DNA from: an uncultured Candidatus Saccharibacteria bacterium
GTDB lineage: Bacteria; Patescibacteriota; WWE3; 2-01-FULL-39-13
NCBI GenBank assembly: GCA_965230915.1
Contig: OZ246395.1
Span: 406,284 to 470,283, forward strand
Reading direction: 5' to 3'
Length of the DNA stretch: 64,000 bases
The notes beneath the pieces are model-generated. The model did no database searches. It saw only the letters and a list, made by a program, of their open reading frames with translations, and was not told where the DNA came from. The translations under genes and the position numbers were made by a program. Positions 15,757 through 39,793 of the stretch are shown here, in pieces; the stretch's first letter is position 1, and every line of letters begins with the position of its first letter.

Positions 15757-17784
15757 TTAATTCTCCTCCACATATAGCCGTTTTTTGAGTTTTTCAGCTA
15801 TTTCAGGGTAATCATTAATTTGGCTAAATACTTCTGTGGCAGTTTCCTTTGTTTCTTTAACCAGCTCAATATCAGTAATATTTGCCGCTTTTAGGTTGCC
15901 AAAGCCACTTTGGTTGGTTCCATAAATATCTCCGGGGCCACGAATTTCCAGATCGATTTCGGCCAATTTGTTACCGTTATGTATTGTTTCCATGTATTTG
16001 AGGCGTTGAATTGATTGCCCTGAATTTGTAGAGGTCATAAGTAAGCAAAATCCTTCTTCGTTACCACGACCGACTCTTCCCCTTAATTGATGAAGCGACG
16101 CGAGTCCAAAGCGTTCGGGGGTTTCGATCAAAATGATATTTGCGTTTGGAATATCTACTCCAACTTCGATAACAGGAGTTGTAACTAAAATATCTATTTT
16201 ATGGTCGAGCATTTGTTTTATAACTTTATCTTTTTCATCGCTTTTTAAACGACCGTGCATTAATCCCAATTTTAAATTTGGAAATATTTTTTTTAGTTTT
16301 TCGAATTCAATTTCAGCCGCTTTTACATTTTGAAATTGTTCATTCTCTGATTCTTCTATAAACGGACATACGACAAAAACTTGAGTACGTTTTGTTAAAA
16401 CTTGTTCTTCGATCCATTGATACGCCCCTCGTCGTTTTTGTTCGCTAACTAACCATGTTTTAACGCCTTTTCTATTTTTAGGAATTTCATCGATGACAGA
16501 TAAATCGAGATCTCCATAAAAAGTTAAAGCTAAACTTCTAGGAATCGGTGTTGCGGTCATTGTTAACAAGTTCGGAAGTGTATCGACAAGGTTGCCCTTT
16601 TTTGTGTAGTGGTCGACAACAATGGTTCGCTGTTCTACGCCAAATTTGTGTTGTTCATCGACGATAATTAATCCGATGTCGTTAAAACTTTCTAGGTTGT
16701 GCAAAATTGCGTGTGTTGCAACGACAACATACGGAGCCTTTAAATTTTTAGGTTTATCTTTACCTGTTAAAAGAACGGTCGAAATATTAAATTGTCCTAA
16801 AACTTTTTGAAGAGTTTTATAATGTTGTTCAGCCAAAATTTGTGTCGGAGCAATTATTATTGAATTAAAATTTGATTCTGCAGCGGCTAAAATTGCACCA
16901 GCGGCAACAACTGTTTTTCCGCTACCGACATCGCCTTGCAATAAACGATTCATGGGAGATTGTTCGTTAAGGTCGTTTAGTATTTCATTTAACGATCTTT
17001 CTTGTGCGCCGGTTAATTCGAATGGAAGATTTTTCTTGAACTCCCCTAGCCTTTTATCTGAAATTTTTATTATGTGACTATTTTTCTTTTGACTCCATCT
17101 GTTTCGAATATATAAACCATGTAAATGTAAAAATAATAATTCTTCAAACGCCAAACGTCTTTTTGCATTTGGAATTTCATCGAGGTTTTCAGGATTATGC
17201 AAAATGTTTAATGAATGTTTGAAATCTAAAAGTTTATGTTTCTGTAATATTTCTTCTTTTAGTGAATCGTTAATTTCATATTTTGCTAAAACTGCTTGAA
17301 TTTTTGTGCGTAAAAAATTATTTGATACACCATTTGTAGTTGAATACATTGGTATGTATTTTTCATTTTCATCATCTGAAAATAATTCCCATTCGGGGCT
17401 TATGAACTGTGGCTTCTTTGAATCGTTACTAAGCTGACCATATAATTTTACGGTTGATCCGACAGGTATAGATTTCTTAAGATAAATTTGATTGAACCAC
17501 ATGGCTTCTAATTTACCTGTTTCATCGCTAAAAACACCTTTTGTTAATTTTTTGCCGTAGCGTGTAAAAACATTGTCGATTTTTTCACAAGTCACGATTA
17601 CAACAGCCTTTTCGTTAGCAACTAGTTCAGATATTTTTTTTATATTGCTTCGGTCTTCGTATCTAAATGGAATATGCCACAATAAATCTTCTACAGTTTT
17701 AATATCTAATTTTTCAAGAAGAATTTTATATTTATTGCCTATACCAGAAATTTCTGTGACCGAATCGGTTAATTTCATACTCAC
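15757..17784 (-). CDS. recG: ATP-dependent DNA helicase RecG
   Basis: It has a wedge domain, a Walker A (GDVGSGKT), a DEQH box and a helicase C-terminal domain. It is 675 aa. Confidence 0.95.
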   Translation of the reverse strand: MSMKLTDSVTEISGIGNKYKILLEKLDIKTVEDLLWHIPFRYEDRSNIKKISELVANEKAVVIVTCEKIDNVFTRYGKKLTKGVFSDETGKLEAMWFNQIYLKKSIPVGSTVKLYGQLSNDSKKPQFISPEWELFSDDENEKYIPMYSTTNGVSNNFLRTKIQAVLAKYEINDSLKEEILQKHKLLDFKHSLNILHNPENLDEIPNAKRRLAFEELLFLHLHGLYIRNRWSQKKNSHIIKISDKRLGEFKKNLPFELTGAQERSLNEILNDLNEQSPMNRLLQGDVGSGKTVVAAGAILAAAESNFNSIIIAPTQILAEQHYKTLQKVLGQFNISTVLLTGKDKPKNLKAPYVVVATHAILHNLESFNDIGLIIVDEQHKFGVEQRTIVVDHYTKKGNLVDTLPNLLTMTATPIPRSLALTFYGDLDLSVIDEIPKNRKGVKTWLVSEQKRRGAYQWIEEQVLTKRTQVFVVCPFIEESENEQFQNVKAAEIEFEKLKKIFPNLKLGLMHGRLKSDEKDKVIKQMLDHKIDILVTTPVIEVGVDIPNANIILIETPERFGLASLHQLRGRVGRGNEEGFCLLMTSTNSGQSIQRLKYMETIHNGNKLAEIDLEIRGPGDIYGTNQSGFGNLKAANITDIELVKETKETATEVFSQINDYPEIAEKLKKRLYVEEN

Positions 17785-17925
17785 AGAATATCAGATTTTT
17801 TAGGTTACATTATAAAAGGAAGAATTGTGGACATGACAATTGATGCAATGATAATAACAACAAGAGTCATTTTTATTACTTTTTCATTTTTATGAAAGAA
17901 TCTGTTCATATTGGTATTTTATCAC

Positions 17926-19224
17926 CTACTCGCACACAACTACTTTTGATTTCACATAACTTACTACGGGCGGTTTTCCTTCAACTTTTTTCATATCTTT
18001 AATCGCAGTAAATTGTGGGTATGGAGTACTTCCTTTTGTAATCCAACTAAAATGATCGTGTGGAGGATTGTACCTAATTGTAAATGGAGTTACTGCAACA
18101 ACTTTATCATCTTTTAGCCAAACATCTTCAAATGCAATTCGATAATAATCTGCCGCTTGATATTGATTTAACGGATAGTTGCCTCCCATTGATCCGTCTT
18201 CGGATTCGGTTTCACGGTGAGCCCACCCTGTTTCAGTAATAAAAACTGGCAATTTTGAAGTATCGATTCCAAATCGGCGCTTTAATATCGATAATTCCCA
18301 ATCGTATGCACGAATGCTATCTCGCCCAGTTGCATATGGAGACCCCGCAAAATTTGGTTGAGGATAAGGGTGCGATGCCCATCCGTCTAATTTTTCAAAA
18401 ATACCTGGAACTTCAGAATTCATGCGAATCAAAAAGCTTTCTTCATCTAGGTAGTCTCCTCCAGTTCGTGCTGATGCATTAAACGCGCCATTCATCATAA
18501 AAAACTCTTCGTTTAAATTATTGAACGCATCTATTGTTTCATCTAAAACTTCAGCATATTCTTCTGGGTTAACATCACCTTTCCAAAATTTTGCATCATT
18601 TACTTCGTTGTAAACTGAAATATAACGATTTTTTATTGGCCACTGCAGACTGTTTAAAAATTTTGCCGAATCTTTTATTTGTTCTTCTCGCTTTTCTTTG
18701 TGTTCGAGATCGAGATCCCATAGCTGAACAATCGGAATTAAATGCGCTTCACTTAAATTTTGAAATAATTTGCCCCATCTATCTGTATCTCGATCTTTTA
18801 CATTATATGGAACTAAAACGTATCCCCAGTCTCCACCATTTGAATTTGCAAGTTCTGCTGCAACATTTGTGAATTCTTCGACCTCGGCATAAATATATAA
18901 TCCGACTTTATTGTTTTGGTATCCGATAATATCCTGAACATCGTCTTCGCGACTTGGCTCAGAGACAACTTTTTGAACAAGATCTTTATATTCGCAAACC
19001 TGTTCCTTATTATCTATTGGAATGGCCGCTTGTTGATTGTAGTCTTCTTTTCCGAAATTTTTTACGATTATTGTAGAAACTCTAATTGAATCATAAGTGA
19101 AGAATAATAATAGGAGTGAGACTATTAATAATATGATCCACCCTATTCTGGTTTTTGGTTTTTTTCTTTTTATATTAGTTATATTTATACGTCGCCTTAT
19201 CAGTGTGACGGTTCTTTTGATCAT
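17926..19224 (-). CDS. membrane-anchored clan GH-A glycoside hydrolase, GH17-like (beta-1,3-glucanase/transglycosylase-like)
   Basis: It has an N-terminal TM helix, YNEVND (NE acid/base) and VFITETGW. The last matches 9 of 13 positions of the GH17 signature ...[STAG]-E-[ST]-G-W-P. Confidence 0.55.
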   Translation of the reverse strand: MIKRTVTLIRRRINITNIKRKKPKTRIGWIILLIVSLLLLFFTYDSIRVSTIIVKNFGKEDYNQQAAIPIDNKEQVCEYKDLVQKVVSEPSREDDVQDIIGYQNNKVGLYIYAEVEEFTNVAAELANSNGGDWGYVLVPYNVKDRDTDRWGKLFQNLSEAHLIPIVQLWDLDLEHKEKREEQIKDSAKFLNSLQWPIKNRYISVYNEVNDAKFWKGDVNPEEYAEVLDETIDAFNNLNEEFFMMNGAFNASARTGGDYLDEESFLIRMNSEVPGIFEKLDGWASHPYPQPNFAGSPYATGRDSIRAYDWELSILKRRFGIDTSKLPVFITETGWAHRETESEDGSMGGNYPLNQYQAADYYRIAFEDVWLKDDKVVAVTPFTIRYNPPHDHFSWITKGSTPYPQFTAIKDMKKVEGKPPVVSYVKSKVVVCE

Positions 19225-19263
19225 GACGGTAATATTTTACCAGAGAATGAGAGATTAAAGGCT

Positions 19264-19545
19264 TTAATTGATTGGGTTAGGCACAGATTGTTTTATTATT
19301 TCGCTTGCGGGTTTGGCGATGTCACCTACTACAGGTATATATTGTAATTCGTTAAGAATCCATATAGCTAAGCCTAGAATTAAGGTAACACCTATTGTCG
19401 CGCCTAATCCGCCTAGTACTCCACGTAAAAATGCCTGACGTTTTCCTAGAAGATAATTTGTTCTTTGAAGTGTTTTTACTAATTTTTCAGTGGAAGCTTC
19501 ATATGACATTAATAAAATATTACATTTAAATTTAAAACGTGACAA
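19264..19545 (-). CDS. small membrane protein; the true start may be the internal Met (MSYEAS...) near 19509
   Basis: Hydrophobic helix GGLGATIGVTLILGLAIWIL. Confidence 0.35.
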   Translation of the reverse strand: MSRFKFKCNILLMSYEASTEKLVKTLQRTNYLLGKRQAFLRGVLGGLGATIGVTLILGLAIWILNELQYIPVVGDIAKPASEIIKQSVPNPIN

Positions 19546-19773: not shown

Positions 19774-21642
19774 TTACGTTCGTTTAAACATCTTCGATAA
19801 TTCTTTTAGCGAAATCTCAACTTTTACAGGTCTACCGTGAGGACAAGTATATTTATTGTCCATCGTATCGAGTTGTGAAATTAATTCCGCGATCTCTTCT
19901 AATGGAATTGTATCTCCTGCTTTATAAGCCAATCGACAAGATAGATAAGTTAAAATTTTATTTGATTGTGAATCAATTTCTTTGTTGTCTGAATGTTGTA
20001 GATCTTCGATTAGCTCGTGAACCAAAGTTTTTATATCAACTTTCTGCATTACAACCGGTATCTGTGTAACTTTATAAGTATTCGGGCCAAATTCTTCTAA
20101 AATAAAACCGGCTTCAGCAAGTTTAGGTAAAATCGGATTTATAAATTCCGATTCATTAATTGATAAATTAATAACAATTGGAGTGAACAATGGTTGTGCA
20201 GCTGTATCTAAATTATCTTCGGCATGTTTTTTTGTTAATTTCTCGTATAAAATTCTTTCATGGACTGCATGCTGATCATAAATATCAATTCCGCTTTCTG
20301 ATTCCACAATAAAATATAAATGATGCACCGATAATATTTTCGGCTGGCTTTTTGGAGCTATTTGAGTGTTTGTACTAGCTGTGTCGTCTTCTTCCCAAGG
20401 CAATTTATCCCACAAACTATCACTTTGTTGTGCGGCAGGTTTATTAAATGGACTTGCAGGTCTCGGAAACGGCGTATTAAATGGATTTGGTTTTGCAAAC
20501 GGTGAATTTTGCATCGGACTTCTTGGCATTTGCGGGTTACCAGCAAAAGGCGAACTAAATTGAGGAGCATTCGGCATTTGAGGCATTGCTGAACCTGAAC
20601 TATTTTGCGCAGCAAAACTTCCTCCACTGCCCGGCAATGAACCTGGTGTTAAATTTGCGCGATCTAGCGATTTTTTAACGGCAGATTTTACTGAATCAAA
20701 AATCAAATGATCGTTTGTGAATTTAACTTCTTCTTTTCTTGGATGAACATTCACATCAACAATATTCGATGCAACATCTATAAAAAGTACAAAAACTGGA
20801 TAAGTATTTTTGGGAATTAAACTGCTATATGCATCTTTTGCAGCAAATGCGATTGATTTATTTTCAATGTTTCGTTTGTTAACAAAAATATATTGATGCT
20901 TTTTTCTTTCACTTGCGAGTTCCGGTTTTCCTACGTATCCATAAATTTCTAGATGCGGATGCTCAAAAAATAGTGGAATTAATTTTTCGTAGTAATCGTT
21001 ACCGAGAATTTCTCGGACACGATCTTCGAGCTGATGATTTTTTGGAAAGCTAAAAACAGTTCGAGCATTATTTATTAATGTGAGTCCAACTTCGGGTTTC
21101 GCCATTGCATGAGCATTTACTACTTCTAAAATATCTTTGTATTCGGATGCAGCAGCTCGTAAAAATTGTTTGCGGGCCGGAACATTATAAAAAAGATCTT
21201 CGATTAAAAGTGAAGTGCCGACTGCTCCACCCGTTTCTGTTTCGCTTATTATCTGGCCGCCTTCGATTTTTATTTCGGTTGCCATATTTGCTTGTGATGT
21301 GCGGGTTTTTAATGTTACTTTTGAAACTGCAGCTATTGATGCGAGGGCTTCTCCGCGAAATCCGAATGATTTGATATTAAGTAAGTCATCGTCTGATGAA
21401 ATTTTTGAAGTTGCGTGGGCTTGAAATGCTAACTTAGCATCATCGGGATCCATTCCCGAACCATTATCGACGATATGAATTTTTTTAATTCCACCTTCTT
21501 CGATATCGATTGAAATTTGGTTTGCTCCGGCGTCGAATGAATTATCTAAAAGTTCTTTGACAATTGAGGCTGGTTTTTCTACTACTTCTCCTGCGGCGAT
21601 TCGGTTGACCAATTCTTGAGGTAAGACTTTAATTTTTCCCAT
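19774..21642 (-). CDS. mutL: DNA mismatch repair protein MutL
   Basis: It has a GHKL ATPase N-terminus (LDNSFDAGA, DNGSGM). Confidence 0.95.
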   Translation of the reverse strand: MGKIKVLPQELVNRIAAGEVVEKPASIVKELLDNSFDAGANQISIDIEEGGIKKIHIVDNGSGMDPDDAKLAFQAHATSKISSDDDLLNIKSFGFRGEALASIAAVSKVTLKTRTSQANMATEIKIEGGQIISETETGGAVGTSLLIEDLFYNVPARKQFLRAAASEYKDILEVVNAHAMAKPEVGLTLINNARTVFSFPKNHQLEDRVREILGNDYYEKLIPLFFEHPHLEIYGYVGKPELASERKKHQYIFVNKRNIENKSIAFAAKDAYSSLIPKNTYPVFVLFIDVASNIVDVNVHPRKEEVKFTNDHLIFDSVKSAVKKSLDRANLTPGSLPGSGGSFAAQNSSGSAMPQMPNAPQFSSPFAGNPQMPRSPMQNSPFAKPNPFNTPFPRPASPFNKPAAQQSDSLWDKLPWEEDDTASTNTQIAPKSQPKILSVHHLYFIVESESGIDIYDQHAVHERILYEKLTKKHAEDNLDTAAQPLFTPIVINLSINESEFINPILPKLAEAGFILEEFGPNTYKVTQIPVVMQKVDIKTLVHELIEDLQHSDNKEIDSQSNKILTYLSCRLAYKAGDTIPLEEIAELISQLDTMDNKYTCPHGRPVKVEISLKELSKMFKRT

Positions 21643-21676: not shown

Positions 21677-22282
21677 ATGAATCAAACACTTTATATAAAT
21701 ATAGGAGATGGTAATGCATATGAGCTAACGGTAGATGATTTTAATTTTCATCCTGTATTGAGAGATGTGGAAAATGTAATCTTATTTTTCTTATTGTCAA
21801 ATAGAGCACTGACTTTATTCGATACGCAAAAGATATTATTGGCGGATGAAGTGTTTTCACCTTATATAAAGAAATATAATCAATTGGTTGGGATTAATTT
21901 CATCAAGAATGAGGACAGTAACGAATATATTGCAACATTAAACATACAAAGCCAGATGATATTTCTTGGGAAAGCAATAGCTACTCTTTTGTTCGATTAT
22001 ATTCGCGCTTCGGACTATAATTCTAAGTTAAAAAATACTAGTAAGATGAGATTTTTAAGACACATTAGAAATGGAGCCGCGCATAACAATTGTTTTAATT
22101 TAATAGATGAAGATGGTAATTGGAAAATAAGTGAGAAAAAACCTATTGTTTGGCATAATAAAAAAATTGAGAGAAGTTTACAAGGTCGACAGATTTTCAC
22201 TCAGTTTGTATCTCTGAATGACATGATTCTATTGGCAAGTGAATTTTCAAAGGAATTATTAGCTATAGATAGTAAACCCTAA
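21677..22282 (+). CDS. hypothetical protein with a candidate HEPN-type R-x4-H motif (IRNGAAH)
   Basis: It is 201 aa. RFLRHIRNGAAHNNCF lies in the C-terminal third, as in Abi/HEPN families. It sits divergent to mutL and upstream of dinB. Confidence 0.4.
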   Translation: MNQTLYINIGDGNAYELTVDDFNFHPVLRDVENVILFFLLSNRALTLFDTQKILLADEVFSPYIKKYNQLVGINFIKNEDSNEYIATLNIQSQMIFLGKAIATLLFDYIRASDYNSKLKNTSKMRFLRHIRNGAAHNNCFNLIDEDGNWKISEKKPIVWHNKKIERSLQGRQIFTQFVSLNDMILLASEFSKELLAIDSKP

Positions 22283-22308: not shown

Positions 22309-23598
22309 CTACCTCCCAAACGCAATCGCATCGGGTGCAAGATTCTCGGTTGCCAACATCTGTGCCGGTTTCACCGTGAACTTTCCAAATTTTTCATTTA
22401 TAGAATCAATCGATTTCATATAATTATCTTTCTTTAAAACGTCATCGAAAAATTCTAATTGTAATCCTTCGTTTTTTGTAACGAAAAAAGTTCCGATAAC
22501 AATTTGGCGAATCGGCATTTTTAATGGCCGTGCATCAAGGATTTGTTTTGCTGCATGATATAAATCGATCGAATCGAAAATTTCTTTCATGCCGGTGTGC
22601 GCGTCTCCCCAATATAAATGCTGTTTGCCCCAATGTGATCGTGATTTTAAATTTAAGTTATCAATTGGAGTGTTTAATTTTTCATATTTTATATTTACAA
22701 AAACTCCTCTAGCTTTATAGCCTTCTTGACGCATTTTGAACGCAACTTTTTCGACTAATTTTTGCAATAAACGACCGATTTCCATTTCGGTAGAAATTGG
22801 TTTATTTAACATATATGAATGTGAAAAACTTCCACGATGAGTTTCGAAATCGTCGATTTCCCAGCCGCGTAATTTTAAATACCAATAATATGCGGCTATT
22901 GATTGAAACGCCGATCTTAATTTAAAAAAGCTGGCGTTATAAAAATCGGTTACATTCATAATGCCGACTCTTTCGAGCATCGCAGAATTGCCGCGCGATA
23001 TTCCACATAAATCTTTTAATTTCATTTTCGAAAAAATTTCTTTGTGGTTATATTGATTAATTTCGTTTAAACCATTTGGTTTTATTAAACCTGCTCCGGT
23101 TTTTGCTAAAAATCTATTTGGAGCAATTCCGATCGATGTTGTTATGTATTCACCTATTTCAGCATTTATTCTAAATTTAATTTCGTCGGCCAAATCAAAC
23201 ATGCTGTGCTTTTTTATGTATGGATAATTTTCCATATGTAAAACAAATTCATCAATAGATTTTGGAATAACCTTTGCGGTGTAATCGAGCAATAAATTTT
23301 TTAATTGTTTGTGAACTTTTCTATAAAGATCCGGACTTGGAGTTAGTGTGATTAATTGTGGGCAAATATGTTTTACTTCGAACATTCGCATGCCGCCTTT
23401 TACCCCCAGTCTTTTTGCTTCGATTGATGCGGCAAGAATACATCCGCTTGGTCCTTCGCGTGTAACAACTGCAACGGGCTTATAGCGAAGTGATGGATTA
23501 TATTGTTGCTCGATTGTCGCGAATGCAGAATTAATATCAATGTGCAAAACTGTCGAAGGAGCTGTATTGAATTTCAAATTGTAAAATTCAGTGACCAT
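22309..23598 (-). CDS. dinB: DNA polymerase IV (Y-family)
   Basis: VLHIDINSAFATIEQ is the Y-family catalytic N-terminus. The start was moved to the internal Met (MVTEFYNL...), because the track ORF 5' extension overlaps the divergent gene. Confidence 0.9.
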   Translation of the reverse strand: MVTEFYNLKFNTAPSTVLHIDINSAFATIEQQYNPSLRYKPVAVVTREGPSGCILAASIEAKRLGVKGGMRMFEVKHICPQLITLTPSPDLYRKVHKQLKNLLLDYTAKVIPKSIDEFVLHMENYPYIKKHSMFDLADEIKFRINAEIGEYITTSIGIAPNRFLAKTGAGLIKPNGLNEINQYNHKEIFSKMKLKDLCGISRGNSAMLERVGIMNVTDFYNASFFKLRSAFQSIAAYYWYLKLRGWEIDDFETHRGSFSHSYMLNKPISTEMEIGRLLQKLVEKVAFKMRQEGYKARGVFVNIKYEKLNTPIDNLNLKSRSHWGKQHLYWGDAHTGMKEIFDSIDLYHAAKQILDARPLKMPIRQIVIGTFFVTKNEGLQLEFFDDVLKKDNYMKSIDSINEKFGKFTVKPAQMLATENLAPDAIAFGR

Positions 23599-23612
23599 GC
23601 ATCGAATATATA

Positions 23613-23630
23613 CCCGAATATAACCCGAAG
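23613..23630 (-). promoter_or_regulatory. candidate LexA operator, a direct repeat TTCGGG-ttata-TTCGGG, 15 nt upstream of the dinB start
   Basis: It shares sequence and spacing with the repeat inside the lexA promoter. Confidence 0.35.
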
Positions 23631-23674
23631 TCAATCGTGTTGACGAATTAATTTTCTCCATGTAAGGTTTAAAC

Positions 23675-24428: not shown

Positions 24429-24457
24429 AAGCGGCGCTAAATGCGCCGCTTTTTTTT
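24429..24457 (+). terminator. rho-independent terminator after the SIMPL gene
   Basis: The stem aagcggcgc-taaat-gcgccgctt is followed by T8. Confidence 0.7.
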
Positions 24458-30997: not shown

Positions 30998-31366
30998 TTA
31001 CGCCTTCTTATTGGCGTATTCAGGCCCAGGCCCTTCTAGCCGCATTCTTGCTTGTAGTATCATTATTTCACGCAAGCCCGATTCACCAATAGCCCTCAGA
31101 GATAATATTCTCTCCGCTGTTAGCTCAAAAAGTTCACGAAGAGAAGATATTTTGTTCCTTCCGAGCGCAGTGGTCACTCTATTTGATAGTCCTCTTGATT
31201 GGCACCACTTTCTAAAAAAAATAGGTTCCAGATCGTCTGGAGGAAAATCCTTTGCAATGAATCCATGCTTCACTACATTTAATTCTGTCATTCGCCCAAA
31301 ATTTTCTAGCACATTGGGTTCATCGCCCTTTATTGTAGCGAAAGTAGCCTTTACCAGAATAAGCAT
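30998..31366 (-). CDS. small protein (122 aa) with a C-terminal RNA polymerase alpha-subunit CTD-like HhH domain
   Basis: LSNRVTTALGRNKISSLRELFELTAERILSLRAIGESGLREIMILQARMRLEG parallels the alpha-CTD pattern LSVRSxNCL...GdL...ELLkipNfGkKSLeEI. The region is slightly G+C-richer than its flanks. Confidence 0.5.
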   Translation of the reverse strand: MLILVKATFATIKGDEPNVLENFGRMTELNVVKHGFIAKDFPPDDLEPIFFRKWCQSRGLSNRVTTALGRNKISSLRELFELTAERILSLRAIGESGLREIMILQARMRLEGPGPEYANKKA

Positions 31367-31439: not shown

Positions 31440-34370
31440 TTATTTCTTCTTTTCTAATGATTCCCTTAGTGCAATCGCTGTATATGAAGTCGGATGTTTA
31501 ATAACTTCTTCTAAAGTTCCTTTTGTAATGATTTCTCCGCCATATTTTCCGCCTTCCGGGCCAAGATCAATAATCCAGTCGGCATTTTTAATAACGTCGA
31601 GGTTGTGTTCGATAACTAAGACTGTGTTCCCTTTTAATACTAAGCGCTTAATAATTGCGATTAATCTTTCTAAATCAGCAAAATGCAAACCGGTTGTTGG
31701 TTCATCTAATATATAGAAAGTTTTACCTGTACCCTTTTTAGCCAATTCTGAGGCTAGTTTTATACGTTGGGCTTCTCCGCCAGATAATGTCGGAGCTGGT
31801 TGGCCAAGTCTCATGTAACTTAATCCAACATCATATAAAGTTGTTAAACGATGATAAATTTGTGGATGATTTGAGAAAAATCCCAATGCATCTTCGACGG
31901 TTAAGTCTAGAACCTCAGCAATATTTTTGCCCTTATATTCAACTTCTAAAGTTTCACGGTTATAGCGTTTTCCTGCACAAACTTCGCAGTCTACATAAAC
32001 ATCTGGCATAAATTGCATTTCGATTTTAATTTGACCTTCGCCTTGGCAAGCTTCGCAGCGACCTCCTTTTACATTAAACGAGAAACGTCCAGATTTATAA
32101 CCCCGCATTTTTGCTGCTGTTGTTTGGGTGAAAAGTTCGCGAATGTCGTCAAAAACTTTTGTATAAGTAGCAGCATTACTTCTTGGTGTTCTACCAATTG
32201 GTGTTTGATCTATGCTAATTATTTTATCGATTTCATCGGCACCTATAATTCCTTTATTTTCTGCAGGTTTTTCATCATTTTTTAGCCCTTTTGCTTGGCG
32301 TAATTCGGCTAACAAAGTTTCGTTAATTAAAGTAGATTTACCAGACCCTGAAACTCCAGTTATACATACAAATTTATGAAGTGGAAATTCAACGTCGATG
32401 TTTTTTAAATTATGTCCACTGGCGCCTAATAATTGAATTGATTGGGTGTCTTTACCTGGTCCCCTTTTTGCTAAACCTTCTTTTTCGTCGGCAGTCAAAT
32501 AATCCATGATATCAACTTTTTTTCGACCCGATAGATATGCTCCTGTTAACGAGTTAGGATCTTTCATAATTTCTTCAGGAGTTCCATGTGCAGTCACGTT
32601 TCCACCTTTGTGACCGGCTCCGGGACCAAAATCAAAAATGTAGTCTGATTCATACATTGTTGTGTCGTCGTGTTCGACTACAACGACTGTGTTTCCCAAG
32701 TCCCTTAACTCTTTTAAGGTTTTTATTAATTGTTTGTGGTCGCGTGGATGCAAACCAATTGAAGGTTCGTCTAAAACATACAAAACACCTGATAATTTTG
32801 AACCAATTTGTGAGGCCAAACGAATACGTTGGGCTTCTCCCCCTGCTAATGTTGATGAGGTTCGGCTAATTGTTAAATATGTAAGCCCAACATCGACTAA
32901 AAAGGCTAGGCGTGACTGAATTTCTTTAATAATTGGTGTCGCAATTTCTTGTTCGCGCTTTGATTCCGGCGCATCACTTAAAGTATTTATCCAGTCCAGA
33001 CATTCTTTTATTGCTAAATCAGAAGTTACAGCGATATTTTGATCTTTTATAGTCACTGCCAATGCTTTTTCATTTAAGCGCGTACCTTTACATTTTGGGC
33101 AAGGTTCCTTAACCATAAATCTTTCAATTTCTGTTCGAATATAATCTGAATTAGTTTCTGTATATCTTCTTTCTAGATTTTTTATAACGCCTTCAAATCT
33201 TGCGTCGAATACGCGCCCTTTGTACATTACTTTGAATTTTTGGTCGCCTACTCCATTAAAGAAGATCTTTAAATGTTCTTTTGGGAGTTTAGAAACGGCT
33301 TTATTTAGGTCAATTTTGTATTCTCGGGCGACGGCTTCGATAATTGTACGGTTCCATGAATTTTTCTCCATTAATGAAGCCCAGGGAATAATGCCACCTT
33401 CTAAAATGCTCAGCTCTGGGGCTAATAAAGCAGCTTCATCGACTTTTAATTGTGTTCCGAGACCTGTACAAACCTCGCAGGCTCCGTGTGGGGAGTTAAA
33501 TGAGAATGTTCTAGGTTCGATTTCAGGCAATGAAATATTATCTACAGGACAAGCAAATCGCTCACTATATAAATGGTCTTCCATTTTTTCTGGCATTTCA
33601 GGAAAGTCAAAAGAATTGTCTAAAACTTCAGCTGCGATTACATATCCGTTTCCAAGTCCGAGTGCGGTTTCAACTGATTGTGAGACTCTAGTAATGGTTT
33701 CTGGCTCTGGAGCTTTTTTTGGTTCAATAATGATTCTATCTATAACAGCTTCAATAGTATGTTTGTTTGTTTTTATTAAATTTATTTCGGTATCTAATCT
33801 GTAAATTCTTCCGTCTATTCTTGCTCTCGTAAAACCCTGCTTTTGTAGGTTTTTGAAAAGTTGAGAATATTCGCCTTTTCTATCTTTAACAATGGGAGCC
33901 AAAATCAAAAATCTCTTTTGCTTTTTAGAATCTGCACCTGTAGAAAGCATTAGATTTACTATTTGGTCTACTGATAAATGTGAAATTTCGCGTCCGCAAA
34001 TTGGACAATGTGGGTGCCCTATTCTTGCGTAAAGCAAACGTAGGTAATCGTAAATTTCGGTAACAGTTCCTACTGTAGATCGTGGATTATGAGAAACGGT
34101 TTTTTGGTCTATAGCAATAGCGGGAGATAACCCTTCTATAGATTCTACTTCAGGTTTTTTCATAACTCCCAAAAATTGGCGAGCATATGAAGATAGCGAT
34201 TCAACGTATCTTCTTTGTCCTTCTGCATAAATAGTGTCCATTGCAAGAGATGACTTTCCTGACCCGGAAACTCCCGTGAATATAACTAATTTATTTTTTG
34301 GAATATCGATGCTTACGTTCTGAAGATTGTGTTCTTTAGCGCCACGAACTTTGATAAATTGTTCTGCCAT
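31440..34370 (-). CDS. uvrA: excinuclease ABC subunit A
   Basis: It has two ABC ATPase modules (GVSGSGKSSL and GVSGSGKSTL) and zinc fingers. It is 976 aa. Confidence 0.95.
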   Translation of the reverse strand: MAEQFIKVRGAKEHNLQNVSIDIPKNKLVIFTGVSGSGKSSLAMDTIYAEGQRRYVESLSSYARQFLGVMKKPEVESIEGLSPAIAIDQKTVSHNPRSTVGTVTEIYDYLRLLYARIGHPHCPICGREISHLSVDQIVNLMLSTGADSKKQKRFLILAPIVKDRKGEYSQLFKNLQKQGFTRARIDGRIYRLDTEINLIKTNKHTIEAVIDRIIIEPKKAPEPETITRVSQSVETALGLGNGYVIAAEVLDNSFDFPEMPEKMEDHLYSERFACPVDNISLPEIEPRTFSFNSPHGACEVCTGLGTQLKVDEAALLAPELSILEGGIIPWASLMEKNSWNRTIIEAVAREYKIDLNKAVSKLPKEHLKIFFNGVGDQKFKVMYKGRVFDARFEGVIKNLERRYTETNSDYIRTEIERFMVKEPCPKCKGTRLNEKALAVTIKDQNIAVTSDLAIKECLDWINTLSDAPESKREQEIATPIIKEIQSRLAFLVDVGLTYLTISRTSSTLAGGEAQRIRLASQIGSKLSGVLYVLDEPSIGLHPRDHKQLIKTLKELRDLGNTVVVVEHDDTTMYESDYIFDFGPGAGHKGGNVTAHGTPEEIMKDPNSLTGAYLSGRKKVDIMDYLTADEKEGLAKRGPGKDTQSIQLLGASGHNLKNIDVEFPLHKFVCITGVSGSGKSTLINETLLAELRQAKGLKNDEKPAENKGIIGADEIDKIISIDQTPIGRTPRSNAATYTKVFDDIRELFTQTTAAKMRGYKSGRFSFNVKGGRCEACQGEGQIKIEMQFMPDVYVDCEVCAGKRYNRETLEVEYKGKNIAEVLDLTVEDALGFFSNHPQIYHRLTTLYDVGLSYMRLGQPAPTLSGGEAQRIKLASELAKKGTGKTFYILDEPTTGLHFADLERLIAIIKRLVLKGNTVLVIEHNLDVIKNADWIIDLGPEGGKYGGEIITKGTLEEVIKHPTSYTAIALRESLEKKK

Positions 34371-34598
34371 TTCTTTTAATTGAATTAATTTCTACGAAAC
34401 TTTTTGGAGAAGCTTCCGCAGGCTAAGAAAGTTAGTATTACAGATCCAAGGTTGTGCACTCTCCGAGTACCCCTCGTTCCATGTGCTCACTTTATTCGCA
34501 CGGAACTCGGTGCCGAGGATTATTAGCTTCGATAAAAAGGCTTCGTCAAAAATTAAATTTAACATAGAAAAGTGTTTGGGTAAAGTTCGGGATTATGC

Positions 34599-35441
34599 CT
34601 ACGGCATTGGTACCGGTTCGGTTTCTATGATTGGGTTACTTGGCTCTTCAGCTCCTGTTGGAACAGTCTGAGCTTCGCCCGCACTAGTCTGCAATTCATT
34701 GTCTATATTTGTGAAATCTATTGATCTTATATGCTCGTTCAAACTCATTGTTTCAGGCGTTGATGTCGCCTCCCTTTGCGTCATTTCCATTATATATGGG
34801 TCAATGTCAATTGGGCTTGTCTCTACTACTGGTTGCTCTTGTGGCTGTTCAACTACTGGTTCGGGTTGTTCAGGAGTTTCAGCCGGTTTCATCATTGTTA
34901 AGTAATAATATCCTCCACCTGCTAATACTAATAAGGCAATTCCGGCAATAATGGCTATCATCGCAAATTTATTTCTAGATGCTGGAGCGGTTACTTCATT
35001 ATATGCGTTTGTGCCTGTGGATGGTGGAGCTTGCATTGTTGAACCCGTCTGTGGGCCAGATGTTACTGATGAAAAAGAAAATTTTTTATGCTTATCTTGA
35101 TTTTCTTCAACTCCTCCTACTAATGTTTGATTGGCTAAATTACCAGCTGGTGTCGGATCTGGACTGCTGAATGGATTAGACGGAATACTAGCTGGCTCGG
35201 CCATTGGTTTTACAGGTGCTGTAGATATACTCTGAGCTGGCATTGGACTCGCAGGCATAGAAGTCATAGGGTCCGAAGAAACAGGCTCTGCCGGCATAGC
35301 GGGCTTTGCTTCCGGAAATCCTTGTACGGCTGGTTGTGCTGGAGGTGTTGGGGTTCCAGTTGGCACATTGTTTACGGGAATTGAGCCGAATCCTGATATG
35401 CCTGAATTATTTTGATTGTTAGGTGTCTGTGGAGTATCCAT
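34599..35441 (-). CDS. Pro/Thr/Ser-rich low-complexity membrane protein with a single TM helix
   Basis: It has a central TM helix (FAMIAIIAGIALLVLAGGG) with P-rich flanks. Confidence 0.45.
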   Translation of the reverse strand: MDTPQTPNNQNNSGISGFGSIPVNNVPTGTPTPPAQPAVQGFPEAKPAMPAEPVSSDPMTSMPASPMPAQSISTAPVKPMAEPASIPSNPFSSPDPTPAGNLANQTLVGGVEENQDKHKKFSFSSVTSGPQTGSTMQAPPSTGTNAYNEVTAPASRNKFAMIAIIAGIALLVLAGGGYYYLTMMKPAETPEQPEPVVEQPQEQPVVETSPIDIDPYIMEMTQREATSTPETMSLNEHIRSIDFTNIDNELQTSAGEAQTVPTGAEEPSNPIIETEPVPMP

Positions 35442-35442
35442 T

Positions 35443-36054
35443 TTATTGTAGTTGTGTAACTAATTTTGATAATGTCGCTTTTGTTGCTAGTAATTGAGCT
35501 GTTATGGCTGCAGATTTTGCTCTTAATAATGGTGCTGATGTTGCAAGTTCAGTATCCATTGATCCGCTAAATGCATCTACTGTTGCATCATAATCGTTTA
35601 TTAAAGTTGCAATTTTAACCATTTCTTGGGAGGCACTATTTAAGTCAGCTTCAGTAATTGCTGGTTGCATTCCGCTATTAACACCTGAACCTTGGTTTAC
35701 AATATCGATATTTTGTAAGTAATTTATATATGCTTCTAAAGTTTTATGGTGTCTCGCGGAAACCATAATGGCAGCTAATTTATAGCTTGATGCATTGGGC
35801 TGAACAGATGGATCAGATTGCATTTGTAAGCCAGCTGTATATTTTTCCCTTTGGCTTTGAAGTTTGGTTTGCTCATCTGTTTTTAACCCTGCTAATAATT
35901 GGGTTCTGTCTACCATAAGTGCTGGTTCTGGTGTGGTAGTAGTTGGGGGTGTTGTCTCAGGAGCGAATCCATCAAAATCTTGTGCAAATGCGACGGTAGA
36001 TAATGATAAGAAAACTGCTAACGAAGTTGTTACAATAAAAAGTGATTTGGACAT
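35443..36054 (-). CDS. secreted hypothetical protein with a signal peptide
   Basis: The N-terminus MSKSLFIVTTSLAVFLSLSTVAFAQD is a signal peptide. Confidence 0.45.
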   Translation of the reverse strand: MSKSLFIVTTSLAVFLSLSTVAFAQDFDGFAPETTPPTTTTPEPALMVDRTQLLAGLKTDEQTKLQSQREKYTAGLQMQSDPSVQPNASSYKLAAIMVSARHHKTLEAYINYLQNIDIVNQGSGVNSGMQPAITEADLNSASQEMVKIATLINDYDATVDAFSGSMDTELATSAPLLRAKSAAITAQLLATKATLSKLVTQLQ

Positions 36055-36103: not shown

Positions 36104-38149
36104 TTAGGCGCTTTTCAGTTCTTTAATCTTATCTCTTATTTGGGCAGCTGTTTCGAACTCCATTAATTCTGCGGCTGTGCGCATTTTATTTTCAAGGTCC
36201 TTAATTAATGTTCGTTGGTTTTTCTTGCTCATTGTCTTAAATTCATAATCAGCAACATTTTCTTCTTCTAAAAGTCCGAGTGTTTCTTCGACTTGTTTTT
36301 CCATTAAGCGCTCGCGAATTGGTTTAGAAATAGTTTTCGGAGTTATATTATTGTCTTTATTGTATTGTAGTTGTACTTCACGGCGACGTTTACCCTCGTC
36401 GATTGCCCGCTGCATCGAATCTGTTATTTTGTCGGCATACATCACAACTTCTCCATCGACATGACGAGCGGCTCTTCCCATTGTCTGAATTAATGAGGTG
36501 TCACTTCTTAAAAATCCTTCTTTATCGGCGTCTAAAATAGCGACTAACGAAACTTCGGGTAAGTCTAGACCTTCTCTTAATAGATTGATTCCGACTAAAA
36601 CATCGTAAGCTCCCTTTCGGAGGTCATCCAAAATGTCAGAACGCTCTAAGGTTTCGATATCGCTATGCAAATATGCAACTTTGAAGCCTTTTTCTTTGAG
36701 ATAGTCTGATAATTCTTCAGACATACGTTTTGTTAAAGTGGTTACTAAAGTTCTCTGTCCTGAAGCTACTTTTGCAGCAATCCGTTTTTCAAGATCCTGA
36801 ATTTGTCCTGCCGACGGAAGAATTGTAATTTCTGGGTCGACTAATCCGGTTGGTCGAACTAATAGTTCAACGACTTGTTTGCTACGTTGTAATTCCCAGT
36901 CATTTGGAGTTGCCGATGTATAAAGAGTTTGACCCATTCGGCGTTCAAATTCATCAAATTTTAAAGGACGGTTATCGAGCGCTGATGGCAACCTAAATCC
37001 GTAGTCTACTAAAGTAGTTTTACGTGCGCGGTCGCCGTTATACATTCCGCGAATTTGTGGAACTGTAATATGAGATTCATCAATCACCAGTAAATAATCT
37101 TTTGGAAAGAAGTCTAATAATGAATATGGAGGGTCACCGACTTTTCTACCGTCAAAATATCTTGAATAGTTTTCGATACCTTTGCAGTAGCCAATTTCTT
37201 GAATCATTTCAAGATCATAGTTGGTTCTTTGCCCTAATCTGTAAGCTTCTAATTTTTTACCTTCTTTATTCAATTTTTCTAGTTGAATTTGTAAGTCTTT
37301 TTGAATTTCATTAATTGCTTGTGTAAACATTTCTTTCGGAGCCACATAGTGTTTTGCCGGGTATAAAGTTGCTGAATTTGATTTTGGTTCGTACTGATTA
37401 TTCTTTTTGAAATCTTCTTGTGCTCGACTTAGCTTGTCCCCTTTTTGTTCGCCTTGTAAATAATCCCCCGACATCGGGTCAAAGTATCTTAGAGAAGAAA
37501 TTTTATCTCCTAAAAACTCAACACGTAGTCCAAAATCTTGGTAGGCAGGAAAAATGTCGATAGTGTCACCTTTTACTCTAAAAACTCCACGCTTAAAATC
37601 GAAGTCATTTCTTTCATAATAGAGCTGAGTTAGTCGAAGCATTAAGTCTTGTTGGCGATATTTCATACCTTCAACTAAATTAATAATTTGCTTCTGGTAT
37701 TCGACTGGAGATCCCAAAGAATATATACATGAAACCGAAGACACAACGATAACATCTTTTCTGGTCATTAATGAAGCCGTAGCTGATAAACGCATTTTGT
37801 CGATTTCTTCATTTATATCGGAATCCTTTTCTATATATGTATCGGTTGCAGGTAAATAACTTTCAGGTTGGAAATAATCGTAATAACTAACAAAATATTC
37901 AACTGCATTATCAGGAAAGAAATCTCTGAATTCCTGATATAGCTGAGCAGCCAAAGTTTTGTTATGAGAAATTATTAAAGTTGGTTTTTGAACTTCTTGA
38001 ATTACATTTGCAGTCACAAAGGTTTTCCCAGATCCGGTTACTCCTAAGAGCGTCTGTTCTTTGTTACCTTTATGTGCGCCTTCCACCAATTTTGCAATTG
38101 CATCTGGTTGGCCTCCGGCTGGCTTGTAATTTCCTTTTAGATTAAACAT
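36104..38149 (-). CDS. uvrB: excinuclease ABC subunit B
   Basis: It has a helicase fold (GVTGSGKT), a beta-hairpin and a C-terminal UVR domain. It is 681 aa. Confidence 0.95.
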   Translation of the reverse strand: MFNLKGNYKPAGGQPDAIAKLVEGAHKGNKEQTLLGVTGSGKTFVTANVIQEVQKPTLIISHNKTLAAQLYQEFRDFFPDNAVEYFVSYYDYFQPESYLPATDTYIEKDSDINEEIDKMRLSATASLMTRKDVIVVSSVSCIYSLGSPVEYQKQIINLVEGMKYRQQDLMLRLTQLYYERNDFDFKRGVFRVKGDTIDIFPAYQDFGLRVEFLGDKISSLRYFDPMSGDYLQGEQKGDKLSRAQEDFKKNNQYEPKSNSATLYPAKHYVAPKEMFTQAINEIQKDLQIQLEKLNKEGKKLEAYRLGQRTNYDLEMIQEIGYCKGIENYSRYFDGRKVGDPPYSLLDFFPKDYLLVIDESHITVPQIRGMYNGDRARKTTLVDYGFRLPSALDNRPLKFDEFERRMGQTLYTSATPNDWELQRSKQVVELLVRPTGLVDPEITILPSAGQIQDLEKRIAAKVASGQRTLVTTLTKRMSEELSDYLKEKGFKVAYLHSDIETLERSDILDDLRKGAYDVLVGINLLREGLDLPEVSLVAILDADKEGFLRSDTSLIQTMGRAARHVDGEVVMYADKITDSMQRAIDEGKRRREVQLQYNKDNNITPKTISKPIRERLMEKQVEETLGLLEEENVADYEFKTMSKKNQRTLIKDLENKMRTAAELMEFETAAQIRDKIKELKSA

Positions 38150-38153
38150 AAAA

Positions 38154-38698: not shown

Positions 38699-38974
38699 AT
38701 GTCTGATGTCATGATTGAAAGTCCACCTTTGGTGGGCTGGACAGTTGCGACTGTGGCTCAAGTCGAAGCACCATCCGAGCAGTCGGAGAAATTTGCACCC
38801 GTAAGGGAGCTTGAGTGCCCGGAATGCTTTGACGATGTGACGATTCCCGCGAAGACTCAGTCCAATGAAATCCTTCAATGCCAAGGATGTGGGACAGATC
38901 TCGAGATCCGAAAGATCGAAGGGGAATGGCGATTAGAGGTTGCTCCCGAAGAGGAGGAAGACTGGGGTGAATAG
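38699..38974 (+). CDS. LysW-like zinc-ribbon amino-group-carrier protein with an N-terminal extension of about 35 aa
   Basis: The C-terminal 55 aa read ECPECFDDVTIPAKTQSNEILQCQGCGTDLEIRKIEGEWRLEVAPEEEEDWGE. This is a C4 ribbon plus the EDWGE C-terminal tail characteristic of LysW/ArgW. The segment is clearly G+C-richer than its flanks. Confidence 0.6.
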   Translation: MSDVMIESPPLVGWTVATVAQVEAPSEQSEKFAPVRELECPECFDDVTIPAKTQSNEILQCQGCGTDLEIRKIEGEWRLEVAPEEEEDWGE

Positions 38975-39008
38975 CCTTAGTCAGTTGTCGTCCATGTGAT
39001 TGTTTGTA

Positions 39009-39073
39009 CAGAGAACACAGGTCTCAACCATCTGGTTGAAAACAGCTTTTTAAGCTGATCTGTGTTCTCTCTG
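39009..39073 (+). promoter_or_regulatory. long inverted repeat (acagagaacacag ... ctgtgttctctctg) flanking an internal hairpin caacca-tc-tggttg followed by aaaacagcttttt, between the LysW-like gene and lexA
   Basis: The repeats were read directly. This is a possible terminator/insulator or an insertion boundary. Confidence 0.35.
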
Positions 39074-39134
39074 ATTTCTCCAATATATTTTTTAATACTT
39101 TCTAAAACATTGAGTTACGGGTCTTATTTGGTCG

Positions 39135-39163
39135 TTGACCGTTCGGGTCATGTTCGGTACATT
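39135..39163 (+). promoter_or_regulatory. candidate lexA promoter, TTGACC-17-TACATT, with an embedded direct repeat TTCGGG-tcatg-TTCGG (candidate autoregulatory LexA operator)
   Basis: The hexamers and the repeat were read directly. The ATG at 39173 lies 10 nt after the -10 hexamer, so the transcript is possibly leaderless. Confidence 0.3.
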
Positions 39164-39172
39164 AGATCTACT

Positions 39173-39793
39173 ATGCCTGTATATCTTTACCCACGTCAAA
39201 GAGAAATCTATGACTTTATAAAACAATATATTCAAAAAGTAGGAACTTCCCCTACTCTAAAACAGATTGCGGAAGCAATGAACTTAAGTTCGTTGGCAAC
39301 TGTCTCAGAACACTTATATGCTCTCGAGAAAAAGGGACTTATCGAAAGAGTTTTTGGCGAGGCTAGAGGTATACGAATTCTGGAAGAATCAAATGCAATT
39401 TACGATCCAGTAGAAAGCATCGAAGTTCCTGTTTTAGGTTACATTGCTGCCGGAAAGCCAATTGAGATTAATGAAGATCATACTGAAACAATCAGTATTC
39501 CCTCAGATATGGTTAGTAGAACAAAAAGAACTTTTGTTTTACAGGTTGTTGGAGATTCAATGATTGAAGATTATATCGTGGATGGCGATCAGGTTATTGT
39601 TGAGCAAGTCAGTGATGTTGCTGAAGGAGAAATTGTTGTAGCCGTTGTAGATTCAGATTACGCGACCTTAAAGAGATTTTATAAAGAGAACGGAAGAATA
39701 AGATTACAGCCATCAAATTCACAAATGGAACCTATATACGCAACGAATGTTGAAATTAAGGGTCGGGTGATCGGTGTAATACGAAAGTATTAA
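39173..39793 (+). CDS. lexA: LexA repressor
   Basis: It has a winged-HTH N-terminus (PRQREIYDFIKQYIQKVGTSPTLKQIAEAM), an AG cleavage-site region (GYIAAGKPI) and an S24 peptidase domain with Ser (GDSM) and Lys (LKR). The track start at 39062 (GTG) is taken to be read-through. Confidence 0.85.
   Translation: MPVYLYPRQREIYDFIKQYIQKVGTSPTLKQIAEAMNLSSLATVSEHLYALEKKGLIERVFGEARGIRILEESNAIYDPVESIEVPVLGYIAAGKPIEINEDHTETISIPSDMVSRTKRTFVLQVVGDSMIEDYIVDGDQVIVEQVSDVAEGEIVVAVVDSDYATLKRFYKENGRIRLQPSNSQMEPIYATNVEIKGRVIGVIRKY

Follow-up and report, generated by a model that had tools for sequence, protein, structure and literature searches.

A WWE3 genome neighborhood that brings together eight DNA-repair genes and three candidate LexA operators

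The 64-kb window analyzed in this work (the whole stretch of DNA, taken from contig OZ246395.1; positions are counted from its first letter) contains a block of 24 kb, at 15757-39793, that holds eight repair/SOS genes: recG, mutL, dinB, mutS, uvrC, uvrA, uvrB and lexA. Seven of them lie on the minus strand and lexA alone on the plus strand, as an earlier note on this DNA had stated; that note had counted nine such genes, while NCBIfam and Pfam scans identify eight among the 21 genes of the interval. We favor the explanation, with a probability of about 0.62, that the block is a vertically inherited, lineage-specific neighborhood of one WWE3 sub-clade, composed of several transcription units and provided with three promoters that carry an inferred LexA operator.

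The exceptional character of this co-localization, already claimed in the earlier note, is borne out by statistics, and the arrangement is conserved in relatives. Chance clustering is unlikely: for assumed totals of ~1000 genes (945,287-bp contig) and 20-40 repair genes, the hypergeometric P of eight repair genes in a run of 21 is 9e-7 to 4e-4 after Bonferroni correction, and in simulated genomes the richest stretch of 21 genes usually contained three to four repair genes. An empirical background was provided by 79 mutS-anchored loci of other phyla among the matches listed, with flanks of up to 10 kb and many of them shorter. Within these flanks mutL is present in 17 of the 79 loci, lexA in four, dinB in one, and recR together with dnaX in one, while uvrB, uvrC and recG occur in none. 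The sole uvrA match in this set (L080) is weak and partial (33% over ~100 residues). Our literature search found no paper on the clustering of repair genes in WWE3 or in the candidate phyla radiation (CPR).

Gene content and conservation of the block

All the repair proteins of the block except DinB exceed the curated cutoffs of their families (Table 1), and this includes the complete set of UvrA, UvrB and UvrC. MutS carries the Pfam domains MutS_I to MutS_V, and MutL shows the motifs DQHAVHERILYE (at 456) and CPHGRP (at 600), which fits the endonuclease motif DQHA(X)2E(X)4E. With domains I-V of MutS1 and the endonuclease motifs of MutL, the pair corresponds to MutH-independent MutS-MutL mismatch repair. 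LexA possesses the residues involved in self-cleavage, namely AAG at 129 (Ala-Gly), GDSM at 164 and LKR at 203 in the numbering of the long open reading frame (ORF), and its homologs match Pfam LexA_DNA_bind and Peptidase_S24.

Two gene starts differ from those of the longest ORFs. The real start of lexA is probably the ATG at 39173, and that at 39062 wrong, because its homologs are 204-208 amino acids (aa) long and the match to the family model begins at residue 43 of the long ORF. In the case of dinB, the ATG at 23598 is the probable start instead of position 23676, since the N-terminus of DinB aligns with the start of the ortholog in the relative L086 (see below).

The window has ~36% GC, without any compositional break, and its short genes are tightly packed. 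At one end of the block lexA diverges from the uvrB unit; at the other, recG closes the series of repair genes, with rsmD-nusB-rnc behind it, and the orthologs of recG occupy the same end in L086, L089 and L090. The earlier note had also pointed to recR and dnaX upstream. Both genes are real, but they form an ordinary dnaX-recR pair located 12-14 kb from the block, behind ~17 unrelated genes. The recA gene is not in the 64-kb window.

Synteny was studied by comparing contigs that encode MutS or LexA homologs, whose genes were mapped by tblastn. A common backbone recurs in five other species-level genomes with MutS proteins 53-80% identical to that of the window. These are L086/L092 (80%, a Logan contig), L089/L094 (57%), L087 (56%, GCA_943354835.1), L090/L093 (56%, GCA_048499955.1) and L001 (53%, a partial locus). 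L094 comes from GCA_002774885.1, the proteins being named WWE3 CG_4_9_14_0_2_um_filter_35_11, and L089 is an ENA contig with a MutS identical to that of the L094 genome. In the first half of the backbone, lexA diverges from (spoU)uvrB-a-b-uvrA-(slot)-uvrC-DUF360-secG-SBP5-mutS, where SBP5 is a family-5 solute-binding protein (SBP) homolog. The second half continues as mutS-SIMPL (opposite strand)-dinB-(slot)-mutL-DUF5665-432-aa protein (glycoside hydrolase, GH)-(slot)-recG. In L090, dinB was not detected and a 494-aa protein is present between mutS and mutL.

Several additional contigs, 18.8-46 kb in size, seem to encode a MutS as well as a LexA homolog, judging only from equal contig sizes. 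The named organisms with the best matches to MutS and LexA are members of candidate division WWE3, and the window therefore comes from a small CPR/Patescibacteria genome. A metagenome scan with an alignment of the SBP homolog recovered three loci only, a 1.7-kb fragment and two distant homologs without mutS. One close fragment stems from a sample labeled Hain-H43.

More distant WWE3 retain separate parts of this arrangement. For instance, the outgroup L095 (LexA 58%) keeps lexA divergent from x-uvrB-sortase-PBP-93aa-uvrA (PBP, penicillin-binding protein), the rest of the block being gone, while L088 and L091 (MutS 49%) keep mutS-mutL alone. Since the distant WWE3 preserve only one or the other of these groups, the block appears to have been assembled in one sub-clade from pre-existing modules. 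The dispersal of the repair genes in related genomes, which according to the earlier note would speak against a repair cluster, is therefore found in the distant WWE3 (L088, L091 and L095) but not in the five closer genomes, where the genes are together.

Candidate LexA operators and transcription units

When the sequences ahead of lexA in five genomes were aligned, a conserved direct repeat stood out that occupies the spacer from the -35 to the -10 box; in the window, this promoter reads TTGACC-gTTCGGGTCATGTTCGG-TACATT. The pattern TTYGG-N6-TTYGG appears exactly three times in the 64 kb, both strands considered, versus 0.75 expected. The three sites are located in the lexA promoter (39142-39157), in the dinB promoter (23614-23629) and upstream of uvrA (34575-34590). 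A second, weaker copy of the motif is present at lexA (39116-39133). When the window was scanned with a position weight matrix (PWM), built partly from the window's own sites, four sites scored above 20 bits and none scored 13-20, and no motif was found upstream of spoU-uvrB, uvrC, mutS, mutL or recG.

These sites are conserved in the relatives. In ~220 kb of related loci, 13 of the 14 exact matches to the motif precede lexA, uvrA, dinB or, in the outgroup L095, uvrB. The motif of the lexA site is kept in L092, L093 and L094 and is degenerate in L095 and L096. The dinB promoter of L086 shows an identical triple-repeat layout, and those of L087 and L089 have the half-sites in an inverted arrangement. 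An equivalent site upstream of uvrA is found in L086/L092, L087, L090/L093 and L094.

The repeat is probably the LexA operator, because it is found at lexA itself and at the two genes most typical of the SOS response, and because it can face either way with respect to transcription. The opposite orientation of the motif at uvrA argues for an operator rather than for a promoter element. The SOS network of the Patescibacteria was reportedly studied by Sanchez-Osuna et al. in 2017, and the motif may have been already described there. Another candidate operator, the Cheo-box GAAC-N4-GTTC, was rejected: it has 23 matches versus 19 expected, and the only perfect one is inside the lexA coding sequence.

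The -10 boxes end 6 nt (dinB) and 9 nt (lexA) ahead of the start codons (23598-23634 and 39135-39175, respectively), and both genes may have mRNAs with no leader or almost none. The plus strand contains at 39010-39071, after the LysW-like gene and before the lexA promoter, a strongly structured element consisting of an 11-bp outer stem around two hairpins (-30.8 kcal/mol, z = -5.7). This element is conserved with sequence changes in L092 (~9895-9955), has no Rfam match and lacks a T-run. Two intergenic inserts are present on the minus strand, one of ~190 nt in the uvrA leader (34371-34560) and one of 142 nt between secG and the SBP gene (28699-28840). Both have AT-rich inverted repeats at their ends, similar in the two inserts, are moderately structured (z -2.7 and -3.1), are missing from the same sites of L086, and may be miniature insertion elements.

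The block is not a single operon. The SIMPL and HEPN-like genes are on the plus strand, terminators are present inside the block (Table 1), uvrA and dinB have separate promoter regions, and there are gaps of 141-228 nt. Given a terminator, genes on the opposite strand and five repair genes without a site, the block is best described as several transcription units under partial LexA control. In L087, uvrA and uvrC abut and the following gaps range from a few to ~60 nt; in relatives of this kind, transcription from the uvrA promoter could continue as far as mutS. LexA plausibly co-regulates part of the block, as a shared conserved motif is found at the promoter regions of lexA, dinB and uvrA only. 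The co-regulated repair island proposed in the earlier note is upheld to the extent of this shared motif. It does not hold for the five genes without the motif, nor is it compatible with the terminator and the opposite-strand genes.

Table 1. Features of the repair-gene block and of its surroundings in the 64-kb window.
Feature	Position	Strand	Basis and remarks
recR	1916-2536
dnaX	2558-4171
recG, ATP-dependent DNA helicase	15757-17784	-	NCBIfam NF008168, 747 bits, above cutoff
Predicted PslG-like clan GH-A glycoside hydrolase, 432 aa, N-terminal transmembrane anchor	17926-19224	-	AlphaFold2 (AF2) and Foldseek
DUF5665 small membrane protein	19264-19545	-	Pfam PF18910, 45 bits
mutL, endonuclease type	19774-21642	-	TIGR00585, 530 bits
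HEPN-like gene, dinB-mutL slot	21677-22282	+	No match of the protein itself to a hidden Markov model
dinB, DNA polymerase IV	22309-23598 (longest ORF to 23676)	-	NCBIfam Pol IV models, E 1e-51, below curated equivalog cutoffs
dinB promoter	23601-23634	-	TTGACT-18-TATATT; three TTCGG repeats with an 11-nt period fill the spacer; core 23612-23629
SIMPL/DUF541 envelope protein, opposite strand	23675-24418	+	Pfam PF04402, 141 bits
Terminator after the SIMPL gene	24429-24451
85-aa membrane protein, strain-specific	24512-24769	-	No significant family; same-strain contigs L081 and L082 only
mutS (MutS1)	24801-27278	-	NF003810, 998 bits
Family-5 SBP homolog, N-terminally anchored	27280-28698	-	Pfam SBP_bac_5, 107 bits
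secG	28841-29053	-	Read from the sequence; Pfam SecG on the L086 and L087 orthologs
DUF360/Phage_holin_4_2 membrane protein, four transmembrane segments, directly after uvrC	29107-29514	-	Pfam PF04020, 65 bits
uvrC, short form, 457 aa	29518-30891	-	TIGR00194, 374 bits
Strong intrinsic-terminator-like hairpin between the alpha-CTD-like gene and uvrC	30945-30986	-	17-pair stem with 8 GC pairs, then a T-run
RNA polymerase alpha C-terminal domain (alpha-CTD)-like helix-hairpin-helix (HhH) protein, 122 aa, uvrA/uvrC slot	30998-31366	-	Pfam RNA_pol_A_CTD (PF03118), 22.9 bits vs 23.8 threshold
uvrA	31440-34370	-	NF001503, 1403 bits
Candidate LexA operator upstream of uvrA	34575-34592	+	TTTGGGTAAAGTTCGGGA, reversed relative to the gene, beside the -10-like TATGTT
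b of the a/b pair, fast-evolving bitopic membrane protein, Pro-rich N-terminus, one transmembrane segment	34599-35441	-	Sequence
a of the a/b pair, secreted coiled-coil-like protein with signal peptide	35443-36054	-	Sequence
uvrB	36104-38149	-	NF003673, 1011 bits
SpoU-family RNA 2'-O-methyltransferase, heads the uvrB transcription unit in this genome	38154-38624	-	NCBIfam and Pfam SpoU-type matches
LysW-like zinc-ribbon protein, upstream of lexA	38699-38974	+	Pfam PF21344, 47 bits, above threshold
lexA promoter	39116-39163	+	-35 TTGACC 39135-39140, -10 TACATT 39158-39163; candidate operator TTCGGGTCATGTTCGG in the spacer, 39142-39157
lexA, 206 aa	39173-39793 (ORF from 39062)	+	TIGR00498, 215 bits, matching residues 43-242 of the long ORF

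Explanations for the block and known systems

According to the explanation that we favor, the WWE3-wide module of lexA divergent from uvrB...uvrA, the widespread mutS-mutL pair, and the genes uvrC, dinB and recG would have been juxtaposed on one strand, the repair modules being interleaved with cell-envelope genes. Three units would start at TTYGG(G)TA direct-repeat promoters with an 11-nt period, namely those of lexA, of dinB and of uvrA, the last with whatever is read through behind it. Upon DNA damage, the RecA-stimulated self-cleavage of LexA would relieve the repression of translesion synthesis and of that part of excision repair which uvrA leads. Promoters independent of LexA would serve mutL and recG, as well as uvrB and uvrC in this strain. 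The alpha-CTD-like, HEPN-like and LysW-like genes would be strain-level cargo inserted at the module boundaries.

Several observations weigh against this explanation. With the motif at only three of the eight genes, the term SOS neighborhood directly covers a minority of the block; moreover, the motif could belong to another regulator, and the high PWM scores of the window sites are partly circular because of the way in which the matrix was built. The P values given above rest on the assumed gene totals. The order of the flanking non-repair genes (rsmD-nusB-rnc on one side and, on the other, HisPhos-eno-ppdk-pgm with its glycolysis genes) is conserved as deeply as that of the block or more so; thus, conservation of the block is not in itself a proof of selection for clustering, and the cluster may have been retained neutrally. 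The contig L096 (LexA 66%) presents, at positions 1-7071 and cut by the contig end, the order tRNA 3' end-144aa-lexA-DUF5665-DsbA (opposite strand)-GH-tyrS-recG-rsmD, a rearranged neighborhood that could reflect an inversion or a different history. Finally, only ~6 independent genomes were inspected, which limits the delineation of the clade and of its ancestral gene order.

Neutral retention is a serious alternative to selection for co-localization, even if we consider it rather unlikely. In this case, a few rearrangements in a small and slowly rearranging genome would have brought together ordinary uvrBA-like and mutSL-like gene pairs and genes with their individual SOS boxes; the resulting order would have been merely retained and would carry no further regulatory or functional significance. 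Such a history would account for the unrelated envelope genes that are interleaved and equally conserved, for the depth of the adjoining non-repair synteny, for the five of eight repair genes without operator motif, for the internal terminators and opposite-strand genes, and for outgroups that function with these genes dispersed. However, it is difficult to reconcile with the low probability of finding eight repair genes among 21, with the lack of anything similar in the 79 mutS loci of other phyla, and with a module order that outlasts repeated insertions in the slots.

Another explanation, which we regard as improbable, goes further than partial LexA control. It supposes, for the ultra-small WWE3 cells, a damage-response neighborhood in which a LexA-controlled uvrA promoter would drive a long transcript through uvrC, DUF360, secG and the SBP gene into mutS, while the a/b pair and other envelope genes would constitute an envelope or division arm of the SOS response, by analogy with YneA and ChiZ. 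It would explain why envelope genes are always found among the repair genes, even in the outgroup that has sortase and PBP genes between uvrB and uvrA. Bacillus subtilis yneA and Mycobacterium tuberculosis Rv2719c/chiZ are divergent from lexA and encode SOS-induced, envelope-located division inhibitors. The unit divergent from lexA in the window likewise encodes small secreted and bitopic membrane proteins (the a/b pair, 34599-36054), the outgroup having sortase and PBP in that slot. However, this unit is led by spoU-uvrB, shows no operator near its promoter and encodes no LysM domain.

The block that we interpret as a lineage-specific neighborhood is a new arrangement of well-known modules. 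The uvrB-uvrA and mutS-mutL operons of B. subtilis and the dnaX-recR pair are classical small repair operons. As in these operons, uvrB and uvrA are close to each other on one strand, mutS is upstream of mutL, and recR directly follows dnaX. The differences are that in the block the pairs are linked with one another, and with uvrC, dinB, recG and lexA, within 24 kb, that two envelope genes separate uvrB from uvrA, and that dinB and opposite-strand genes stand between mutS and mutL. The SOS mutagenesis cassette imuA-imuB-dnaE2 consists of one operon, which moves from lineage to lineage and whose proteins depend functionally on one another. The block resembles it in having damage-response genes together under LexA control, the latter being inferred in our case, but it combines independent pathways, from nucleotide excision and mismatch repair to translesion synthesis and branch migration, with genes unrelated to them, and its inheritance is vertical.

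With respect to the operator, the LexA box of the Alphaproteobacteria is the direct repeat GTTC-N7-GTTC (PMC8565304). The system proposed here would be similar in the autoregulation of lexA, in the presence of operators at dinB and uvrA, and in a direct repeat with an 11-nt period, as far as can be read from the sequence; the lexA site of the window literally contains GTTC-N7-GTTC. In contrast to the alphaproteobacterial box, the conserved core is TTYGG(G)TA and not GTTC, and the dinB half-sites of some relatives are inverted.

If the clustering were functional, it would be a rare bacterial case of excision, mismatch, translesion and branch-migration genes kept beside their repressor, and it would offer a compact and tractable SOS system for the poorly understood CPR. 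More modest gains are a candidate LexA operator for WWE3 and the corrected starts of dinB and lexA.

Embedded genes, variable slots and the short UvrC

The embedded genes that are conserved in the clade encode predicted membrane or secreted envelope proteins, none of them resembling a nucleic-acid enzyme. DUF360 is kept in all clade loci, DUF5665 always comes after mutL (L086, L087, L089 and L090), and the position of the SIMPL gene is conserved in L001, L086, L087 and L089. The SBP homolog is found beside mutS, with 50-80% identity, in L001, L083, L086, L087, L089 and L090. In most clade genomes, its stop codon overlaps the start of mutS or lies 0-2 nt away from it (in L001 the distance is 6 nt), and the two genes apparently form an odd but conserved, translationally coupled pairing; there are no ABC permease genes near the SBP gene. 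The a/b pair, situated between uvrB and uvrA, is orthologous clade-wide and evolves fast. Orthologs of b are present in L086, L087 and L094, the proteins of L090 and L001 being linked weakly or indirectly. The a protein of the window matches that of L086 directly, and those of L087, L094 and L090 are linked through L086 and through each other.

Other genes occupy slots whose content changes from one genome to another. The HEPN-like gene is missing from all related loci, the same slot containing a methyltransferase gene in L086 and Bro-N genes in L087 and L089. The alpha-CTD-like gene is present in same-strain contigs only; its slot is empty in L087 and L094, where uvrA directly adjoins uvrC, and filled by other genes in L001 and L090. 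The LysW-like gene is found here and in L092, the 80% relative, and is missing from L093, L094 and L095. Elsewhere, the slots or adjoining module boundaries carry a methyltransferase, Bro-N proteins, a 704-aa secreted protein, two small unknowns and a type V Cas effector. The Bro-N genes lie at 7095-7913, 14631-15482 and 20049-20879 in L087 and at 6743-7594 and 11971-12801 in L089. In L094, a type V CRISPR effector gene (1-2082, minus strand; Pfam REC1, Cpf1_PI-like and RuvC_1) directly follows uvrC, and genes for PIF1-like and UvrD helicases and a Phd antitoxin are beside lexA. The slots are insertion-tolerant boundaries and not conserved partners of the repair genes.

The identities that the earlier note had given to three interleaved genes stand to different degrees. 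The LysW-like protein, an orphan in an auxotrophic CPR genome, exceeds its Pfam threshold and has the tail EEEEDWGE, of carrier-protein type; ORF scans found no ATP-grasp (LysX-type) ligase and no lysine or arginine biosynthesis gene in the 64 kb. The alpha-CTD-like protein is borderline (NCBIfam E 1.3e-4, best PDB E 0.13). The HEPN-like family comprises 76 representative clusters. In 51 relatives, the residues R131, N132 and H136 of its RNxxxH motif are invariant or nearly so, R131 and H136 being invariant, and the family matches are weak: four of the 51 match HEPN pEK499_p136 (PF18736; best E 0.001) and one matches Abi_2. The single-sequence AF2 model of the window protein is poor, with a predicted local distance difference test (pLDDT) score of 51.5. 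PDB sequence searches with the unknowns yielded nothing significant, and PHROGs and PADLOC gave nothing except a weak PHROG match for a small Zn-ribbon ORF (7209-7526) outside the cluster.

The UvrC protein stops right behind its RNase H-like endonuclease domain and does not have the (HhH)2 DNA-binding domain of canonical UvrC. It only contains the Pfam domains GIY-YIG, UvrC_M, UVR and UvrC_RNaseH, with no HhH domain, and its residues 299-456 match residues 22-164 of the 220-residue C-terminal half of the Thermotoga maritima protein (2nrt). This short form is clade-wide, with 438-457 aa in the window, L001, L086, L087, L090 and L094. A continuation of uvrC into the next ORF, or an alternative genetic code, was discarded, as that ORF encodes the DUF360 membrane protein and other large genes are intact. 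The alpha-CTD-like protein was also rejected as a detached (HhH)2 domain of UvrC, since it is missing from every relative with the same short UvrC.

The earlier note had regarded the embedded unknowns as candidates for repair-accessory functions. The HhH protein would then replace the (HhH)2 domain of UvrC, and the HEPN-like and LysW-like proteins would act in damage signaling. The truncated UvrC, the HhH-type fold (of borderline score) encoded immediately upstream of uvrC and the location of the LysW-like gene directly upstream of lexA would agree with this proposal. However, the HhH and HEPN-like genes are in no related genome, although the relatives share the short UvrC; the HhH gene has its own terminator, and the LysW-like gene reaches the closest relative only. 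In addition, the slots of other genomes contain unrelated cargo, and the conserved unknowns have signal peptides, transmembrane segments or a glycosidase fold. The proposal, which we consider very improbable, is thus largely refuted by non-conservation. This case calls for caution with guilt-by-association, since the embedded unknowns are envelope or cargo genes instead of repair factors. The UvrC without (HhH)2 domain is itself a clade character worth recording.

The least credible explanation is a horizontally acquired or mobile repair island, suggested by the Bro-N and type V Cas effector genes in the slots of relatives, by the HEPN-like gene, also of mobile/defense type, and by the two inserts described above, which resemble miniature inverted-repeat transposable elements, but contradicted by a uniform GC content (0.33-0.41 throughout), by the absence of integrase or transposase among the window ORFs scanned and of flanking tRNA genes, by best repair-protein homologs that belong to WWE3, and by a backbone that is collinear with its flanks across the clade. 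The only tRNA genes of the window are at 53.9 and 62.3 kb, Rfam yielding just these two, and no large repeats were found in a repeat search.

Outside the block, 8 kb from it, a 126-aa protein (7586-7966, plus strand) possesses only the DNA-binding domain of MGMT, and a Trp replaces the active-site Cys (IPWWRV), so that it looks like an alkyltransferase-like (ATL) protein. ATL proteins hand O6-alkylguanine to UvrABC.

The 432-aa protein encoded between recG and DUF5665 has no match in Pfam, NCBIfam or PDB sequence searches. It belongs to a CPR/Patescibacteria-wide family (3449 homologs at 50-70% identity) without a Pfam model and is 59-69% identical in the clade genomes, being more conserved than MutS. 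The AF2 model has a pLDDT of 89.5, and its top Foldseek matches are PslG/GH39 and GH30 (E 2e-10); these and matches to GH5 and GH128 have probability 1.0. The positions N206-E207 and T330-E331, which include both catalytic glutamates, are invariant in 66 sequences of the family. On the basis of the model, the protein has the features of clan GH-A, namely a (beta/alpha)8 barrel with a conserved acid/base Glu behind strand 4 (NE motif) and a nucleophile Glu behind strand 7, and is predicted to be a membrane-anchored extracellular glycosidase; a widespread CPR family annotated as hypothetical can in this way be described as PslG-like. The region 48583-58521 contains a run of envelope-polysaccharide genes encoding a 944-aa GT2-LysM-beta-helix protein, a UDP-glucose dehydrogenase-like protein, a BNR/sialidase-like protein, a 714-aa beta-propeller/Ig protein and a protein of the alginate-lyase family. 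Together with the PslG-like glycosidase, these genes suggest a substantial exopolysaccharide metabolism.

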